Shown here: piece after piece, positions 1 to 52,794 of the stretch | How the letters are laid out: each line of letters starts with the position of its first letter | Numbering within the stretch: the stretch's first letter is position 1 | Origin: Candidatus Poribacteria bacterium | Lineage (GTDB): Bacteria; Poribacteria; WGA-4E; PCPOR2b | DNA length: 64,000 nucleotides | Reading direction: 5' to 3' | NCBI GenBank assembly: GCA_965215015.1 | Contig: OZ244042.1 | Coordinates: 800,001 to 864,000 of the forward strand | Translations under genes and position numbers: made by a program | The notes under the pieces: generated by a model | What the model was told of the DNA's origin: nothing | The model's input: only the letters and a program-made list of their open reading frames with translations | Database searches by the model: none

Positions 1-1038
1 ATGACGACGGACGATTTCAACGCTGGTTTTGACGCCGGGTGCAGGAGTCTTGCCGAGATGCAGGAGCCGTGCGTCGCCGACCACAAGCGAGCAGTAGGTG
101 CCCACGAAATGCTGCTGAAGCGGTTTGATGGTCAAGCCACCCGTACCGATCAACTCGATTCATATTTCCATGTCTTTGATGCGTACCGCAAGGTCGGACG
201 CGCCGCCGATTGGTTGGAGCAAACCGAAGATATAGTCGAGCAAATCGGTGATGAAATGACACTGATGCATCGCGCACTCTACACACGTGAACGCGGTAAA
301 ACGTTGCGAGAATGGAGGCACCATCAAGAAGCGGCTGATACCTTTGAAACGTTCATCGACTGGCTCAAAAATACGGAGATAAGGGACCCGGAAAAGCAGG
401 CACTTCTCATTGGGGCACAGGGTGACCATCTCCATCTCGCACCGACCTATTATCGGCTCGGTGAACATCAAAAGGTGAAAGTGCTGCTTGCAGAAGCCGA
501 AGCCAACCTTGAGAGTTATCTTGTTGAGCGAGATGCCGTATTGGCAAGTATCACCGATCAAAGCGAGACAACGCGCAAACGGCTGGAGCGAATTTACCAA
601 AGGGCGGGAGATTATCCCACGGGAGGGAGTGTGGCGGATATCCGTCACTGGCTTAATCGGAAGTATTTCATAGGAATCCACATCGCCACGACTTGTCTCG
701 CTCTGGGCTGCTCAGAGATAGGGGAGGGAGAGGCTGCTATCCGCCTATTGAATCGCGCGGCGCAACATTGGGAGCAGCACCGAGATTATATCGAGGAAAA
801 GGGCATGGTGTGGTCGTCCGGGGGAAGAATCATGGCGTGGTTAGCAGCGATGGCGCTAAAATTCCGCAACGACCGCGAAGCAAGTCTTGAATATCTCAAG
901 CGAGCTCACGAGGATCGGCGACGTGCAGCACGTGGTTCAATTAAGCGTTTTTTTGAGACTGACGACGCCTTCGAGCCCGTGCGGCATGACCCCGAGTTTC
1001 TTGCGGTTGTGAATGCTCCGGTGGTTAGGGGGTGTTGA
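1..1038 (+). CDS. Hypothetical alpha-helical/TPR-like protein (may extend left of window)
   Basis: 345-aa ORF, helical A/L/E/R-rich; C-terminal 'DDAFEPVRHDPEFLAVV' resembles the cap ending TPR arrays. Confidence 0.55.
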   Translation: MTTDDFNAGFDAGCRSLAEMQEPCVADHKRAVGAHEMLLKRFDGQATRTDQLDSYFHVFDAYRKVGRAADWLEQTEDIVEQIGDEMTLMHRALYTRERGKTLREWRHHQEAADTFETFIDWLKNTEIRDPEKQALLIGAQGDHLHLAPTYYRLGEHQKVKVLLAEAEANLESYLVERDAVLASITDQSETTRKRLERIYQRAGDYPTGGSVADIRHWLNRKYFIGIHIATTCLALGCSEIGEGEAAIRLLNRAAQHWEQHRDYIEEKGMVWSSGGRIMAWLAAMALKFRNDREASLEYLKRAHEDRRRAARGSIKRFFETDDAFEPVRHDPEFLAVVNAPVVRGC

Positions 1039-1326
1039 CATTTGAGGACAGCACGTCGGTCCAAGACTCTCGGAACGGAGTTGGGTTGAACGGGAACCTG
1101 AAACCCAATCCAAAGGAAGTGGAAAACAGTAGTAGGCATACACCGTATACCTACTACTGGCAACTTACCTTATCATCGTCCAAGTTGCTAGATAGCCCGT
1201 AGGTCGAGTTGCCATACTCGACATCTACTAGAAACAACTTATAGACGGAACACCAACCCGCCGGGCGAGGGAGCCAAGACCTTACCTATCGACGAATTAC
1301 AGACACGACTCACATAAATGTCAACA
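1033..1326. mobile_element. MITE-like element, TIR TGTTGACATTT...AAATGTCAACA, containing REP-like hairpins
   Basis: 11-bp TIRs at 1033-1043 and 1316-1326; its first ~58 bp recur inverted at ~38000-38057. Confidence 0.6.
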
Positions 1327-1370
1327 GAACCTAACCGGTAACTTTCATTGTTTGAAATTCGCACAAGAGA

Positions 1371-2825
1371 TCATTCAAAAGCAACGGAGAAGAGTTCTGC
1401 AGAGCGCAGTTTCACGTGCAAGACAATCGGTTTCCCCTCTGGCACATTGATATCGGACTCGCCGTTCCATGTTACAATCTTGTTCGACCAATCGCCGGTG
1501 AGTGGATCGCAGTCGGCCATAGAACGTCCCACCATCCCCTCAATCCCAATGCCAACCTTACCCGCCATCGGTGCACGGAAATTCAGTCGAATCTGCCGAC
1601 CTGAAGGGAGAATCGGAACAGTCCAAAATTCGCCCTCGTTGTCGGTGGTCACCGCACAGAGCCGGTCTTTCTGCCACCATGCCCACCCCATGTCCGCTGC
1701 AGCAAAAATCGCGGGCCAGCGTGGAAACTTGTGCGGGTACATCGTCCCGGAGTAGGGAATGGCAATCTTGTCCGCACCGAGGGACTGGAGGTCTTTCCCT
1801 GTACCGATAAATTCGCAATCCCATTTCCCTAATTCGCCGGGCGTCAGAATGGGACCACCGGGGATCTGATTCCACGCGATACCATCCTCGCTTGAATAGA
1901 GCCGCACCTCGCTACGTTCAGTGTACCGGTGATAGAGCATTGGAAGCATCAACTGATACTCCGGAAGTTCGGGATAGGAGCTATAACCGTTGAGATAGAA
2001 ATCATAGTCCGGCGGATCTTCAAGGCGGGGCCAAATAATAGGCACCACAGGCGTCCAGTGCATAAAGTCCTCCGCTTCTGCCCGTCCGATCCAACGTCGT
2101 CCGTTGCGAAACATACGGGTGTACATCACGTACCGTTCCAGCGTTTCGTTCCACAATACGGTGGTGTCCGTATCGCTCGGATGCAACATAAACGGTTCAG
2201 GTAAGACGGTCCAGTTGCTCCCGTCGGGCGAAACGGCGGCGAACATTCCGAATCGTCGCTCCCCTGATATCCGGTCATCCCGATGGCGCGGTTGACGGTT
2301 GAAATACGCTGTAAGCTGTGGCTGAAACATGCCTTCCTCGAATTGGGCGCAATAGATAAACTTGTAACGCTGGGATTCGGGGGCATGTGGATCAATGAAA
2401 AAGGTCATCCCGTCGAAGCCACGCTGTCCTGGCACATTGATTTCGTCCCACGTCGGTTCACTCCAGTGAAAGCCATCCAGCGATTCAATCCCACAGATGG
2501 CGACAGAGGTGATGGTGTCGGTATGTGCCACTGATCCTGAGCCCAACATTGAAATCCCGTTGACCTCAATATACCAAGTGCGATACCGCTCCCCATCGAA
2601 GATGACTCTGCCCCAACCTCTGTAACCTTCCATTTTCCCCGCTTTACGCGCCGGTTGTGCCTGCAATCGGATGCCACGTGGGACCAACCGAGGCTCAGCA
2701 CGCATGGGGACCTGTGGTCCGGGAGGCGTGCCGACCCGATAATGCTCCCCCTCCGCTGTCAACCAAGCAACCGCTCCACACTGTATATCCCGCCAATCTG
2801 TAAACAGAATTTTCTTTCTTCTCAC
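1371..2825 (-). CDS. GH32/GH43-like five-bladed beta-propeller protein with C-terminal beta-sandwich
   Basis: 484 aa; Asp-box-like motifs 'SLDGFHW', 'SPDGSNW', 'SEDGIAW'; 'SDTDT'; paralogous to 36234-37727. Confidence 0.6.
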   Translation of the reverse strand: MRRKKILFTDWRDIQCGAVAWLTAEGEHYRVGTPPGPQVPMRAEPRLVPRGIRLQAQPARKAGKMEGYRGWGRVIFDGERYRTWYIEVNGISMLGSGSVAHTDTITSVAICGIESLDGFHWSEPTWDEINVPGQRGFDGMTFFIDPHAPESQRYKFIYCAQFEEGMFQPQLTAYFNRQPRHRDDRISGERRFGMFAAVSPDGSNWTVLPEPFMLHPSDTDTTVLWNETLERYVMYTRMFRNGRRWIGRAEAEDFMHWTPVVPIIWPRLEDPPDYDFYLNGYSSYPELPEYQLMLPMLYHRYTERSEVRLYSSEDGIAWNQIPGGPILTPGELGKWDCEFIGTGKDLQSLGADKIAIPYSGTMYPHKFPRWPAIFAAADMGWAWWQKDRLCAVTTDNEGEFWTVPILPSGRQIRLNFRAPMAGKVGIGIEGMVGRSMADCDPLTGDWSNKIVTWNGESDINVPEGKPIVLHVKLRSAELFSVAFE

Positions 2826-48736: not shown

Positions 48737-51700
48737 TTACTCAGATGCTGTTACAGGTAGCCCGACGAAAAGCCGGCTATCAATATCCGTAAGCGGGTCA
48801 ATTTCCCGGCACGCTGCGGCGCGGGCGAACACGATCCCGGGCTGCTTGGCTCGCATCGCACGCGACAAAACGGTAAACCCTTTTGATTGGCTGCTATTGC
48901 GTAATTCCCACGCAACTCGTTCCAGCTCTAAGTTGAATCGAACAAGCCCTTCCCGTGAGCCAACGCATAGCGTGTAGAGTTCATCAGACGTTAAGCCCTC
49001 GCAATACCCGTTACGAATCACAACCTCTCCGCCTCGGATATCTGACACTGTCCCTCGCGCCCCGACAACACAACCAAGTCGATGAAGTCTGCTCGTAAAG
49101 GAGCGGCTTTTGACTGCGAGGATATGTGCTCCCAAGTTGTTATCAGCAAAGTTTTCGTAAGCGGCAATCCATTCTATAAGTTCTTCCGCGTAAGTGTCCC
49201 ACGCTGTTGCATCGTCAGGGTCCCTAGGAACGGGAGGACTACCATCGCCCCTACTGAGAAACGGACTCATGGATGCCCCCGATTCCTTTACAATTTCGAG
49301 TCCACGCTGCATCAACCGTTCAGCGACTTCAATGGTGCGATCAATTCCCTCGCGTTTGAGGAGTGTTCTTAGCGTATCCGCTAACGAGCGTCGCGTGACC
49401 AAACCATCAGGAATAGCAACCTCCATCCCGACAATTCCTGCGAGTTCATCACGCCCCTCAGGGGTGAGACTCAAACTTGCCAATCCCCATATCGCGTCAT
49501 GCCCTGGGGCTAATGCTGTGCATACATTTGGATCCCGTTTGAGATGTCCAGTGATGGAGAGCCGTTCACTAGCTTCTCGTTGGCCCGCCGCTGTGATGGG
49601 CAGAAAAACCGCCGCTTGGTCGCCATCAAAGTCAGCATTCATTAACTCACAGACGAAAGGGTGAACACGGATGACACGGCCTGGCTGGCGTACCGGATGA
49701 AATGCAACAAAGGAGGTAGGCATATACGCAGGGGCTCGATGCACAATCACCCATGAACGTCCCATCAGCTCATCAAGTGCCTGTGTTGCACCTTGGCTGC
49801 GGCCTCGCACGGCTTTGGCATCACCGAGTTCCTTTGTAAGTTCCGGCCCGAAGAGTGCCCATGCCATCTGTTCTGGAATGCCGACCTGATCGGCGCGTAG
49901 CTCCGCACCCGGGACAATGACGCAGCGCCCACTGAAGAGTGTCCGTGCCTTAAAGCGCATGTCTGCCGGGCTTAGCAGCACGTTGAAGTATTCCGCAAGG
50001 CGCGTTTGGAGTTGCTTGAGGGCTTGGAAGGTCAGGCTTTCCGGTGCATCATTTGCAAACATCCGCTCTGCTCTGGTATTGGCATCGGCAAGTACATGAT
50101 ACTCGGAAATGCCTTCACAGACACCAACTTCATCAATGGTTTGACTATGTAGCCACGGATGGGAGACTGGCCGGGCAAGCTGGAGCGTATTTCCAGTCGG
50201 ACGTACAAATTGGAAAGTCAGTCTGTCACCATCAAAGTTAGCGCAGATACCTGCCGCCGAAAGCTGCTCCCTGAGCTTAGTAAACATCGGCGTCGGTGGA
50301 CTTGCTTGCTCAACTTTCCCTGCTGTAACACGATCGAGAAGTGTCTCCGCATCTACTCGCGTCGCAGCACGGGTATTGAAATGTTCCCGCAAAGTTTCAA
50401 ATGCTGAAGTGTTGCGTAGCGTATAGTATTCGAGTTCACCAAGCCCTTGATGATATATAGGGGCCTCGTGGACGATTGGTTCAGATACCTTGAGCTTATC
50501 AAGCGCGATGTGAACTGTCTTCCCCCAATAAACCCAACCAACTGTACTCGGCCGATTCAGTTTTTTGCCGTTAGCTCCAAACGTGAGGGTTTCCATCCCA
50601 TCTTCAGGCAGCCCTAACTTTTGGAGTAGCTCACGGAGTTGATTGACACTAGGTGCTTGAAATGGCGGCACAATGGCCGTTTCTCCTTCCGTCCGTGCGA
50701 TGCGCCCCACGATTGCTTCACGGATTTGACCAAAGTTCATCCGCCCGTGCAAAGCACCGAAGCTGAAGACAAGCTCTACCGGCGTGCCATCGGCGAGGTG
50801 GGGCATCTCATCGTCAGGGGTGATGCGCGAAATGACCCCTTTCGTGCCGTGACGGTTACTGATCTTATCACCCGGCTCAATAATATAAGGGAAATTCAGA
50901 CGCGTAGCGCACGACTCACTAATCACGATGCCGTCCTCAAAGGTCTCCCCGCCCCAAGAGATAAAAGCGGTCAACAGATTACGTCCACACCAAAAGTAGG
51001 GGACATCAGGCTCGTAACCTGTCTGGACAAGTGCAGGCTCTGGGGAGACAGTCAATCTTGGCATCTCCTTGGAACAGCTAACTGGAGCAGCCTCTGGAGC
51101 AGTAGGCGACAACCACTGACGCATCATGTTCGCCCCCATGAGTACTCGCGATGGATCATTGTGTTCGAGAAAAGGGATTAGTGCTGCAGACAGACCTAGC
51201 GTTGCTTCCTGGCTATCATCCACGATGACCAATTTTTTATCACGAATCTCCGCCCCCCTCGCAACTGTCAGAATTTTGCCGACGTTTGGTCCTTCTGGCG
51301 TTTCAAATGGGCAGGTCCGTCCAAAGTGTCCAGAGGTAAAGACCTGATTCCCCTGTAAAATCCGCACCCTACGTAGATGTGTATGCTTGTCGAGCCAGTT
51401 GGTACTGGAGAGTCTCTGAGCGGTAAATGTGTCACGAAAGAACTCGCGCACCCATCTGTCAATCGGAAGCCACGAGCGAATAAGCGACGTATCCCATTCC
51501 AGATCTGGCGGTGCTTCTCTGATACGCGCTTTGAAGTAATCGTACAGTTGATCGCCCACACACTCAATCTTCGCTTGTTTCAGTTTCACGGTTGAGGCGG
51601 TCGGTACGACAACATAGGGTTCACCATCAAGCGTGAACATACCGTCTACATCAGGCTGCGGAATACCCGTGTATTCGACCTCAACATACCCCTCAGTTGA

Positions 51701-51856
51701 CGCCAGCACAAGTTTCACGCGACAGGTGTACGTACCAATTGGCTCAAAACGATAACCGGCTAGTGGCAGCCGGTCAGCAAGGAGTTCTGGCAATCGTTCT
51801 TTCATCAATCCTTCAAAAGACTGCTTGTGCCAAAATGCAGTAATGTTGTTCGACAT
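48737..51856 (-). CDS. Miniaturised single-chain RNA polymerase-like protein (RpoB-RpoC fusion)
   Basis: Beta motifs in order: 'GRTCPFETPEGPNVG', 'LIPFLEHND', 'MGANMMRQ', 'FEDGIVISE', 'GDKISNRHGTKG', 'GRMNFGQ', 'LGELE'. Then beta-prime motifs: 'FSGRCVI', 'HRAP', 'NADFDGD', 'EGL', 'GSREGL'. AGGAGG RBS. Confidence 0.93.
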   Translation of the reverse strand: MSNNITAFWHKQSFEGLMKERLPELLADRLPLAGYRFEPIGTYTCRVKLVLASTEGYVEVEYTGIPQPDVDGMFTLDGEPYVVVPTASTVKLKQAKIECVGDQLYDYFKARIREAPPDLEWDTSLIRSWLPIDRWVREFFRDTFTAQRLSSTNWLDKHTHLRRVRILQGNQVFTSGHFGRTCPFETPEGPNVGKILTVARGAEIRDKKLVIVDDSQEATLGLSAALIPFLEHNDPSRVLMGANMMRQWLSPTAPEAAPVSCSKEMPRLTVSPEPALVQTGYEPDVPYFWCGRNLLTAFISWGGETFEDGIVISESCATRLNFPYIIEPGDKISNRHGTKGVISRITPDDEMPHLADGTPVELVFSFGALHGRMNFGQIREAIVGRIARTEGETAIVPPFQAPSVNQLRELLQKLGLPEDGMETLTFGANGKKLNRPSTVGWVYWGKTVHIALDKLKVSEPIVHEAPIYHQGLGELEYYTLRNTSAFETLREHFNTRAATRVDAETLLDRVTAGKVEQASPPTPMFTKLREQLSAAGICANFDGDRLTFQFVRPTGNTLQLARPVSHPWLHSQTIDEVGVCEGISEYHVLADANTRAERMFANDAPESLTFQALKQLQTRLAEYFNVLLSPADMRFKARTLFSGRCVIVPGAELRADQVGIPEQMAWALFGPELTKELGDAKAVRGRSQGATQALDELMGRSWVIVHRAPAYMPTSFVAFHPVRQPGRVIRVHPFVCELMNADFDGDQAAVFLPITAAGQREASERLSITGHLKRDPNVCTALAPGHDAIWGLASLSLTPEGRDELAGIVGMEVAIPDGLVTRRSLADTLRTLLKREGIDRTIEVAERLMQRGLEIVKESGASMSPFLSRGDGSPPVPRDPDDATAWDTYAEELIEWIAAYENFADNNLGAHILAVKSRSFTSRLHRLGCVVGARGTVSDIRGGEVVIRNGYCEGLTSDELYTLCVGSREGLVRFNLELERVAWELRNSSQSKGFTVLSRAMRAKQPGIVFARAAACREIDPLTDIDSRLFVGLPVTASE

Positions 51857-51922: not shown

Positions 51923-52537
51923 TCACCTTTCCTCTTCTTCCCAGCCGCTTGCGATCTCCTTCCATTCGCGGGCAAGGTGTTTTATGGAATGGTGTAAACG
52001 CGACTTCACTGTGCCTTCTGGAATACCTAGCTCTATGGCGGCTTCTCGCAGTGCCATTTCCCTCTGATATATGAGGTGAAGGACTTCGCGTTTCTCTTGG
52101 GGGAGCTCATCAACAAGCTGCCAGAGCAGCTGAGATTGTTCGGCTTGCTCCACCATCACTTCGGGACCATGTGACGAAACGTCAACCATCCAATCTGGAT
52201 CTGGCAGACGTTCCTCCTCATCGTCGAATTCGTCTGGAGGTATTTCAAGGGGTTCCTGTCGCCGTCGCCGCACGGTGCGCAGATGATTGAGGGCGAGGTT
52301 CGTTGCGATGCGGAAAAGCCAGCCCTTGAACTCGCCTTGACCATTCCACTGTTCAGCACGCGTCCAGACACGTAAAAACACCTCTTGAACCAGATCCTCA
52401 GCAGCACTTTCAACCCGCACGATGCTAAGGATATGCTGACGGACGGGCACACGGTATCGAGCAAAAAGCGTTTCAAAGGCGGCGGCATCGCGCTTTACAG
52501 TCTTGCGAATGAGGGTTTGGTCTGATTGTTCCATCAT
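51923..52537 (-). CDS. ECF (group 4) sigma-70 family sigma factor
   Basis: Region 2 'AEDLVQEVFLRVW', 'WLFRIATNLALNHLR'; region 4 'AAIELGIPEGTVKSRLH'. Confidence 0.95.
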   Translation of the reverse strand: MMEQSDQTLIRKTVKRDAAAFETLFARYRVPVRQHILSIVRVESAAEDLVQEVFLRVWTRAEQWNGQGEFKGWLFRIATNLALNHLRTVRRRRQEPLEIPPDEFDDEEERLPDPDWMVDVSSHGPEVMVEQAEQSQLLWQLVDELPQEKREVLHLIYQREMALREAAIELGIPEGTVKSRLHHSIKHLAREWKEIASGWEEEER

Positions 52538-52554
52538 AAAAGGCTTTCACTGTA

Positions 52555-52582
52555 AATGACACCGTAGGAGGGATAAAAGTTC
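52555..52582 (-). promoter_or_regulatory. Putative ECF-type promoter GAACTT-N16-GTCATT upstream of the sigma gene
   Basis: Minus strand: GAACTT ttatccctcctacggt GTCATT, ending 17 nt before ATG 52537; fits the AAC(-35)/GTC(-10) ECF pattern. Confidence 0.65.
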
Positions 52583-52794
52583 ATTGTCTGAATCAGGATT
52601 CTCAGGATTAGGTTAAATAAAACGCAAAGGCGCGAAGGCACAGAACCGCAAAGAAGATCAGACAAAACTTTGCGTCTCTGCGTTAGATTTTTCATCGAAT
52701 CCCGATTAGGTTTTCGGATTTTGGGTGGCGTGAATGGGTATAAATGTGATAAGATGCACATGTTACTCATCACACAATACATTAGGTTAGGAAC

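Follow-up and report, generated by a model that had tools for sequence, protein, structure and literature searches.

Can an RNA polymerase (RNAP) that is close to the multisubunit enzymes of bacteria do without a trigger loop, a mobile element with which normal RNAPs achieve speed and accuracy of synthesis and which is regarded as central to catalysis and fidelity in all RNAPs of the multisubunit type? The question is raised by a gene on the minus strand (48737..51856) of a 64,000-nucleotide window of a Candidatus Poribacteria genome (contig OZ244042.1, positions 800,001 to 864,000), the window being the whole stretch of DNA that was analyzed. The gene encodes a single-chain beta::beta' mini-RNAP of 1039 amino acids (aa; protein P0001), as identified from its open reading frame (ORF), Pfam domains, matches to sequences of the Protein Data Bank (PDB), and an AlphaFold2 (AF2) model. 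An earlier reading of the sequence, hereafter the original prediction, held that this enzyme appears to lack the trigger loop; the stretch concerned, 48857-48961 of the minus strand, corresponds to codons 966-1000. We estimate a probability of roughly 60% that P0001 is a strongly minimized, single-chain derivative of the bacterial beta/beta' catalytic core that is paired with a dedicated sigma factor of the extracytoplasmic function (ECF) type. It can be aligned residue by residue to beta and beta', yet the trigger loop and the flap, which binds region 4 of sigma, have been cleanly excised. Even the most distant of the solved two-barrel enzymes are described as retaining part of the trigger loop (PMC10770324).

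The two halves of P0001 correspond to different subunits. Pfam finds only Rpb2_3 (aa 149-204), Rpb2_6 (aa 326-457), and Rpb1_2 (aa 700-764). The beta-type double-psi barrel (PF00562, E-value 8.3e-40) has the basic GDK..RHG.KG motif, and the beta'-type barrel (PF00623, E-value 1.9e-18) has the NADFDGD metal-binding triad. In the PDB, matches to the N-terminal half are bacterial beta chains (best E-value 2.3e-43) and matches to residues 638-837 are beta' chains (best E-value 1.6e-22). Because the halves match beta and then beta', P0001 is a fusion of the two in that order, at under half of the usual size. When the family profile was aligned to the canonical beta' of the same cell (P0271) with hhalign, residues 583-976 of P0001 paired with beta' 287-811 (probability 99.87, E-value 1.1e-31), a stretch that spans the clamp coiled-coil, NADFDGD, and the first half of the bridge helix; the alignment to the cell's own beta (P0272) had an E-value of 7.3e-55, with the flap deleted. 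An AF2 model computed from an alignment of 69 full-length family members (A1) has a mean predicted local distance difference test score (pLDDT) of 93.1 and a predicted template modeling score of 0.90, and pLDDT is 88-98 over residues 951-1030; a prediction from the single sequence (pLDDT of 33.6) was discarded. In VIA structural comparisons, model residues 1-542 match beta/Rpb2 chains with Z-scores of 27-30, and bacterial beta chains are 28-31% identical to the model in structural alignments.

Residues that carry out catalysis are conserved across the 69 representatives. The beta-like half (aa 1-542; 50231..51856, minus strand like all features described here) consists, according to VIA and hhalign, of the beta1/protrusion, the fork, and a compact double-psi barrel, without the beta2 lobe and without the flap. 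Its active-site basic motif, GDKISNRHGTKG (aa 329-340; 50837..50872), has G329, D330, R335, and G337 in all 69, K331 in 64, and K339 in 65. The NADFDGD motif of the beta' barrel (aa 740-746; 49619..49639), evident from translation and Pfam, has its catalytic aspartates in 64 (D742), 67 (D744), and 66 (D746). Position 740 of this motif is Asn in 42 of the 69 members, Asp in 17, Glu in 4, and Gln in 3; in canonical enzymes this Asn contacts the ribose of the nucleoside triphosphate (NTP). The arginine of the 'RAP' motif (R707), to which ribose sensing is ascribed (PMC9508822), is kept in 59. Upstream of the barrel, the clamp coiled-coil (aa 584-627; 49976..50107) forms helices at 584-601 and 606-627 in the AF2 model and aligns by hhalign to the cell's own beta' from residue 287 onward.

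Where the trigger loop should follow, there is almost no sequence. F-loop-like strands in the AF2 model lead into the bridge helix (aa 957-988; 48893..48988), a single helix of 32 residues with pLDDT of 88-95, the N-terminal part of which aligns by hhalign to the cell's own beta' 789-811. The string that the original prediction had likened to a bridge helix, CVGSREGLVRFNLELERVAWEL, is found at aa 965-986 and is indeed the N-terminal two thirds of this element, and the roughly 10 aa said to precede the final block are 10 residues (RNSSQSKGFT, then V) between aa 965-986 and aa 997-1032. In the model, the helix ends in a 7-residue linker (aa 989-995; 48872..48892), where canonical beta' has ∼505 residues including the trigger loop; by hand count, the bridge helix of the cell's own beta' ends at ∼830, its trigger helix 1 string is at ∼938-957, and region H starts at ∼1336. 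Canonical beta' subunits have, in this interval, two trigger helices with a GEPGTQ...RTFH-type motif. The translation of P0001 has no string like AQSIGEPGTQLTMRTFH anywhere, again as had been noted, whereas the cell's own beta' has one. Pfam models of Rpb1 domains 3-5, including Rpb1_5 (PF04998), have no match in P0001 at E≤1, and the rpoC model TIGR02386 scores 93.3 relative to a cut-off of 963.5. Profile alignment and structure prediction thus both bear out the absence, with the bridge helix followed by a short linker and a block that resembles region H.

The loss is not a peculiarity of this copy, as short spacing is found in every one of the 69 family representatives. The distance from G954 (invariant) to R999 (nearly invariant) ranges from 42 to 60 residues, with a mode of 46 in 43 of the 69, and because of this spacing no family member has room for a trigger loop. 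Its absence throughout the family is confirmed insofar as alignments and a predicted structure can do so. In canonical enzymes the trigger helices pack against the C-terminal half of the bridge helix; in this family that half is variable, whereas the terminal block ranks with the most conserved segments of the protein.

This block (aa 996-1035; 48752..48871) comprises helices 996-1002, 1006-1015, and 1025-1031, with a two-residue strand between the second and third in the AF2 model, and residues R999, A1000, R1002, P1006, A1013, A1014, E1018, D1020, and L1022 are shared by all 28 C-termini of a family alignment. The original prediction had compared its core (aa 997-1032) to beta' region H, and the comparison is upheld by three agreeing lines of evidence, none of which is strong alone. 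In the first, the 28 C-termini were turned into a 47-position profile (A2), which among 177,635 distinct PDB sequences had as its top match the C-terminus of an archaeal A'' subunit (4qiw_C 331-370, E-value 0.089), with VLARA and FA.AA..GEVDPL in common; the second match was an unrelated decarboxylase and the third was Schizosaccharomyces pombe Rpa1 1646-1667 (profile positions 22-43, E-value 0.94). When the last 55 residues were aligned by hhalign to a beta' profile of 60 sequences (59 canonical beta' proteins from 76 rpoBC loci, plus P0271), the sole match, not significant, was to own-beta' 1336-1378 (E-value 0.14).

Structural comparisons place the end of the model near the ends of large beta'-type chains. 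Because Foldseek and a first pass of VIA were filled with beta chains, we drew on a wide VIA search of 48,161 representative chains for the C-terminus. The model aligned with Mycobacterium tuberculosis beta' (6edt_D; Z 17.2, root-mean-square deviation [rmsd] 3.4, 493 residues aligned) such that model 501..1039 corresponds to chain 2..1265. Likewise, model 541..1039 corresponds to 12..1463 of Drosophila Rpb1 (9mu7_A, Z 14.2), 543..1039 to 12..1712 of human RPA1 (7ob9_A, Z 14.2), and 506..1039 to 1..1677 of S. pombe Rpa1 (7aoc_A, Z 12.9), the last end point agreeing with the independent sequence match at 1646-1667. With Sulfolobus A' (2pmz_A, Z 14.1), whose chain terminates past the bridge helix, the alignment covered model 541..995 only.

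The same residues could instead serve as a miniature trigger element. According to this explanation, the helix-turn-helix at aa 996-1015 is a fixed element that packs on the bridge helix and contacts the NTP, like the permanently closed trigger-loop subdomain of QDE-1 (1102-1136), which is described as rigid, directly following the bridge helix, and touching the NTP (PMC9508822). R999, R1002, and P1006 are invariant within aa 996-1015 and G1007 is nearly so, region H of the cell's own beta' has nothing that corresponds to the block's invariant Arg and Pro, and the VIA alignment to QDE-1 (7y7p_A; Z 9.7, rmsd 5.0, 433 aligned) reaches model residue 1035 and chain residue 1172, past its trigger loop. 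Nevertheless, we consider this very unlikely. The best PDB match of the block is the C-terminal region H of A'', whose trigger loop is reported to be at the opposite end of the subunit (PMC8131849). Moreover, in beta', Rpb1, and Rpa1 the stretch aligned by VIA extends to 150-600 residues past the trigger loop, and helices of 7 and 10 residues are far below the length of trigger helices.

Other elements have been lost along with the trigger loop. Also gone from P0001 are the jaw and the lineage insert, both situated ahead of region H and after the bridge helix. The flap is described as an SBHM insert of the beta barrel to which sigma region 4 or TFIIB binds (PMC7824862). By hhalign, it is reduced from ∼240 residues (P0272 ∼1005-1245) to ∼5 residues and two further inserts are missing; the rpoB model TIGR02013 scores 177.7 relative to a cut-off of 801. 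Of the lobe-protrusion module, VIA aligns the B1/beta1 part and nothing else (3mlq_A, 4kbj_A). The first ∼286 residues of beta' are reduced to ∼40, in which the 'LA.PV.H.W' strand is kept and the zinc finger is gone, the rudder region is shorter, and a loop takes the place of the first rim helix. Kept are both double-psi barrels, the fork, the clamp coiled-coil, the F-loop region, the bridge helix, and region H. In canonical enzymes, the clamp coiled-coil (aa 584-627 here) is the docking site of sigma region 2.

A gene for a sigma factor accompanies the mini-RNAP. The cognate ECF-type gene, assigned by Pfam and synteny (P0002, 204 aa; 51923..52537), starts the pair 66 nt upstream of the RNAP gene and encodes, as in ECF (group 4) members of the sigma-70 family, regions sigma2 and sigma4 only (PF04542, 4.1e-17; PF08281, 4.5e-11; ECF model PF07638, 6.9e-05), with a TIGR02937 score of 112.2 relative to a cut-off of 42.9. 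Overall, 28 of 30 loci have an adjacent sigma gene on the same strand. Orthologs that are 43-86% identical occupy the same place in all four other genome loci, which represent three phyla. Among the 25 metagenome loci with a full-length RNAP ORF and ≥650 nt upstream (3 with shorter upstream sequence and 42 with truncated ORFs were dropped), 23 have the sigma gene, 18 at -60 to +300 nt and 5 overlapping (L135, L140, L146, L149, and L168), the overlaps arising because the ORF caller took the earliest start codon. The two exceptions, L143 and L172, have the same sequence. In these, an ORF resembling, by eye, an IS200/REP-tyrosine transposase is ∼0.6 kb upstream of the RNAP gene (L143:4107-4538; L172:1161-1592).

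The two genes are also lost together. Among 61 genomes of the order, all 25 intact sigma orthologs were found in genomes with the RNAP. RNAP-less genomes that still match sigma have a copy with two in-frame stops (G056) or a fragment of 86 residues (G054), and a genome with only a remnant of the RNAP (G031) had no sigma match. Decay of sigma where the RNAP has been lost suggests that a sigma deprived of its mini-RNAP serves no purpose, with the proviso that the genomes are related and the independent events few. Linkage and co-loss are indirect evidence for binding of the sigma to this polymerase. Complex prediction with mini-RNAP aa 250-1039 and the sigma, from alignments prepared for this analysis, gave weak support, with a score of 0.39 relative to 0.00 for the best of three controls; the runs agree in ≥33% of contacts and the pLDDT of the partner is ≥64. 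The mark for such predictions is reached by 58 of 80 solved complexes and by 2 of 110 mismatched pairs, and scores of ≤0.60 are those of 7 of the 80 solved complexes and of both mismatched pairs that passed. Because sigma-RNAP complexes have already been solved, the score may reflect memory of them.

Conservation upstream of the sigma gene points to a dedicated promoter. In 13 same-genus loci, the otherwise variable upstream region has one invariant block, and this footprint identifies a promoter-like motif, TGAACY-N14-GGTGTC, in the window at 52558..52583. TGAAC-N18-GTC, mostly as TGAACY-N14-GGTGTC, is present at constant spacing in 25 of 25 loci from several phyla (4 from genomes, L005-L008, and 21 from metagenomes). 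It begins 33-96 nt ahead of where the aligned sigma starts, and a GAGG-like ribosome-binding site usually comes after it; by hand arithmetic, the loose pattern is expected by chance in ∼7% of such 160-nt stretches. In the whole genome of 5.94 Mb, the strict pattern occurs twice and a reversed control pattern once. As the second match is antisense within a 263-aa ORF and probably due to chance, the single credible copy is that before the module's own operon, which therefore appears to be autoregulated. An ORF of 82 aa (52534-52782, minus strand) overlaps the sigma promoter region; Pfam finds nothing in it, and it probably does not represent a gene.

A mechanism can be proposed for the minimized core and its sigma. 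Region 2 of sigma would dock on the retained clamp helices and bring the enzyme to TGAACY-N14-GGTGTC-type promoters. Nucleotide addition would proceed on the two-metal center with fixed residues of the barrels and bridge helix, without closure of a trigger loop, and the active site would be open on the side of the secondary channel. Such an enzyme is expected to be error-prone, to be without RNA cleavage that depends on the trigger loop or Gre factors, and to be deaf to pausing and regulators that act through the trigger loop. The original prediction also suggested a slow or low-fidelity enzyme. YonO, however, is described as forming phosphodiester bonds as efficiently as multisubunit RNAP, and as more processive, more error-prone, and without RNA cleavage (PMC5467207). 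Since YonO is efficient without trigger-loop homology, slowness does not follow from loss of the trigger loop, and by analogy the mini-RNAP would be expected to carry out efficient but error-prone synthesis with no hydrolytic proofreading and little pausing. A tentative and broader proposal is that the 1039-aa beta::beta' chain and an ECF-like sigma that reads TGAACY-N14-GGTGTC promoters form a self-contained chromosomal system that is present in several phyla. A regulatory role as a 'sigma sink' was also considered and was rejected because the catalytic residues are conserved.

The conserved upstream ECF-type sigma points to promoter-directed transcription rather than to synthesis of primers or signal oligonucleotides. 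The contrary explanation, that the enzyme transcribes no genes but makes short RNAs (primers and abortive or signal oligonucleotides) or copies RNA, while the sigma mainly serves the host RNAP, seems unlikely. Loss of the flap, lid, rudder, and zinc finger would have removed elements for RNA exit and separation of the hybrid, two-barrel enzymes such as QDE-1 are described as copying RNA (PMC9508822), and the genome has just one credible copy of the promoter. Conversely, sigma decays upon loss of the RNAP (G056 and G054), the clamp helices on which sigma2 docks are kept, the ribose-sensing 'RAP' Arg is present in 59 of 69 representatives, and the similarly stripped YonO is reported to be processive (PMC5467207).

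Several points weigh against our reading of P0001 as a sigma-dependent core without a trigger loop. The assignment of region H draws on marginal E-values (0.089, 0.94, and 0.14) and on first- and last-residue ranges only. With hhalign, the C-terminal 100 or 55 residues gave E-values of 0.14-0.39 for region H, and a colinear alternative, in which the block is the segment just after the canonical bridge helix, had a probability of 24-40%; neither placement is significant, and the bridge helix accounts for most of the score of the colinear alignment. Where residues 996-1015 lie with respect to the NTP site is something that we infer. Deletion of the trigger loop reportedly cripples catalysis by Escherichia coli RNAP (Zhang, Palangat and Landick 2010) and, given the closeness of P0001 to canonical beta/beta', this effect implies that the enzyme may be slow, or even very slow. 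In canonical holoenzymes, region 4 of sigma is described as sitting on the flap (PMC7824862); with the flap absent, use of a sigma by the mini-RNAP is not a given, and the sigma could act with the host RNAP. Lastly, the strict promoter pattern revealed no further target genes genome-wide.

Function of the trigger loop could also be supplied in trans, by an unlinked or novel protein, the linker of the sigma, or a host factor, in the manner of Orf7 or A''. A precedent is the yeast linear plasmid pGKL2, whose Orf6 is described as a 982-aa Rpb2::Rpb1 fusion without a detectable trigger (PMC2919709) and whose Orf7 is reported to have two C-terminal beta' regions and to bind Orf6 (PMC6211774). The linker between sigma2 and sigma4, usually variable in ECF sigmas, has here an unusually conserved motif (PAWMID..LGPD) that would suit such a role, as might a small ORF of 80-95 aa that follows the RNAP gene in five metagenome loci. 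We nonetheless regard supply in trans as decidedly unlikely. Searches for a second gene with a trigger loop, by means of PF04998, found only rpoC in three of three carrier genomes (the cell's own, G176, and G177), and P0001 has region H fused in cis, although this region and the trigger loop go together in Orf7 and A''. The small downstream ORF is limited to one sublineage, and no flanking gene is common to more than 7 of 69 loci. The conserved third gene that the original prediction proposed to look for thus did not materialize; the largest flanking family, an oxidoreductase-like gene in 7 of the 69, has mixed positions and strands.

Two features of these partners can be described further. 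In the linker (P0002 ∼115-127; P-A-W-M-I-D..L-G-P-D), P125 is invariant and D119 nearly so among 26 sequences. The small ORF is on the same strand as the RNAP gene in five related loci (L112, L125, L128, L132, and L137), starting 25-34 nt past the RNAP stop or, in L112, with an overlap of 13 nt. Its product has a conserved 'RERY.DYVREAE.ERLV' and a hydrophobic tail and may be an anti-sigma-like protein.

Comparison with known systems sets the family apart from each of them. Relative to the canonical RNAP of the same cell (P0272 and P0271), the mini-RNAP shares the catalytic motifs as well as the fork, the clamp helices, the bridge helix, region H, and a partner of the sigma family, but is one chain of 1039 aa instead of two of 1706 and 1414 aa, lacks the trigger loop, jaw, insert, flap, beta2 lobe, rudder, and beta' N-terminal residues ∼145-286, and is accessory and patchy whereas the canonical enzyme is universal. 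YonO, of Bacillus prophage SPbeta, is likewise described as a single chain of ∼100 kDa with both barrels and no trigger-loop homology that exists beside the host RNAP (PMC5467207). It differs in being borne by a prophage and having very distant homology to multisubunit RNAPs, whereas the mini-RNAP is near bacterial beta/beta', is located among chromosomal genes, and has a sigma; the description of YonO gives no known specificity factor (PMC5467207). The distinction from YonO draws on its published description.

The pGKL2 enzyme is similar in architecture. Orf6 is also a beta-then-beta' fusion of nearly the same size that is reported to have lost about half of its coding sequence and to be without the lid, rudder, and rim helices, while keeping both barrels and the bridge helix (PMC2919709). 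In that system, however, the two C-terminal beta' regions are on the separate Orf7, of 132 aa (PMC6211774), whereas region H of the mini-RNAP is in cis and nothing trigger-like was found; a figure legend of the report on Orf7 names TH1, TL, and TH2 with the chain that carries them unspecified. The pGKL2 enzyme is further eukaryote- or poxvirus-like and uses no sigma, and it is described as retaining a flap-type insert (PMC7824862).

More remote are QDE-1, gp96/gp64 of P23-45, and gp66 of crAss-like phi14:2, which are also single chains with two barrels and a bridge helix and match the model weakly in VIA (Z 9.7 for QDE-1, 7.3 for gp96, and 6.7 for gp66). All are much further removed from beta/beta' and come without a sigma, and they are reported to keep at least a trigger loop's N-terminal portion (PMC10770324). 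Full-length beta::beta' fusions (NF011417 and NF007172; 2839-2890 positions) have the same gene order in one chain but are full-size and essential and have all domains; P0001 scores 179 bits relative to a cut-off of 4632. Reduced two-barrel RNAPs without a recognizable trigger loop are already known (YonO and pGKL2 Orf6), and the mini-RNAP family is distinct in its nearness to beta/beta', region H in cis, loss of the flap, and tie to a sigma on bacterial chromosomes.

Members of the family occur in several phyla. An exhaustive HMMER search of 1.84 billion cluster representatives yielded 552 proteins at E≤1e-30, the top matches being ∼1000-1100 aa in length and 37-57% identical to the query end to end, and a word-indexed search that scored 8000 candidates yielded 1036 at E≤0.001. 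Among the 120 matches listed, the sole name given is 'hypothetical protein', for entries from Candidatus Poribacteria (82% identical), Ktedonobacteraceae, Chloroflexi, and Hydrogenedentes. Four further genome loci are from Poribacteria, Caldilineaceae, and two Latescibacterota; of the 80 loci retrieved by a full-alignment search of genome contigs, these 4 were true members and most were canonical rpoB. The family motif was found in 92 metagenome stretches, of which 80 were kept as loci and 70 of these have a family ORF.

The family is unannotated, and the searches of mobile elements yielded no full-length copy. The motif had no matches in 2.9 million viral contigs, and none of 50,697 phage records and none of 72,556 plasmid records covered ≥80% of the query. 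No NCBIfam model exceeded its cut-off for P0001 (the best was NF011417, with 179.4 bits), PADLOC has no model for a mini-RNAP, and PHROGs has only rpoB/rpoC-like families. A search of the full-text literature, exclusive of supplements such that an earlier mention is possible, found no description of a sigma-linked beta::beta' mini-RNAP.

Within phyla, the distribution is patchy. The gene is present in 33 of 176 genomes of its own phylum, including 22 of 28 in its own family, 9 of 11 in a second family, and 0 of 112 in the largest. In its own genus it is present in 14 of 19 genomes, and some of the genomes without it are reported to be 98-99% complete. In the phylum of the Caldilineaceae carrier, at least 3 of 301 sampled genomes have the gene, a lower bound because two candidates were scored per genome.

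Patchiness raises the question of whether the gene is an inactive relic, a decaying pseudogene of a duplicated rpoBC. Its spread (33 of 176 genomes in the phylum and 14 of 19 in the genus) is compatible with this, as are substitutions of a catalytic Asp in a few representatives and cases of actual decay. G031 has a C-terminal RNAP remnant of 159 aa (C1:2648683-2649147), the gene of G050 is split at the beta/beta' junction (C2:821089-824204), and L109, L114, and L124 are identical remnants with a truncated sigma and a C-terminal RNAP fragment of 149 aa. However, intact ORFs of ∼1000-1100 aa are found in many 50%-identity clusters and several phyla, catalytic motifs are present in 64-69 of 69 representatives, and the AF2 model is confident. 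In seven same-genus comparisons, which involve kin and are non-independent, the ratio of nonsynonymous to synonymous substitution rates (dN/dS) was 0.145-0.191 for the whole gene, or 0.15-0.19 when rounded, and 0.087-0.160 for aa 950-1039. Judged from these codon comparisons, the anatomy common to the family is held under purifying selection, and decay of a duplicate is an extremely improbable and disfavored explanation for the family as a whole.

If active, the minimized core and its sigma would provide a natural minimal system in which to examine what the barrel core alone contributes to rate, fidelity, pausing, cleavage, and antibiotic sensitivity, as well as a test of how a sigma factor works without a flap and a compact, orthogonal triple of sigma, polymerase, and promoter for synthetic biology. 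Should the tentative proposal of a self-contained system be true, it would be the first cellular, sigma-dependent derivative of multisubunit RNAP that works without trigger loop and flap, and neither element would be needed for promoter-specific RNA synthesis. The family also documents reductive evolution of a cellular RNAP in bacterial chromosomes, beyond viruses and plasmids.

The surroundings of the gene are those of an ordinary chromosomal locus. Neighbors are metabolic genes (aldehyde dehydrogenase, major facilitator superfamily transporter, glyoxalase-fold protein, AAA_26/dethiobiotin-synthase-like protein, and GFO/IDH/MocA oxidoreductase) and GC content is unremarkable. The genome, a single contig of 5.94 Mb, has separate, normal rpoB (1706-aa ORF) and rpoC (1414 aa) genes. 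In the rpoB ORF, which is outside of the window (L004:2833-7950), a segment of ∼60 aa is duplicated near residues 250-380, and a C-terminal extension of ∼230 aa has DAPDTFDLAPEKQNLQT-type repeats and an extra domain.

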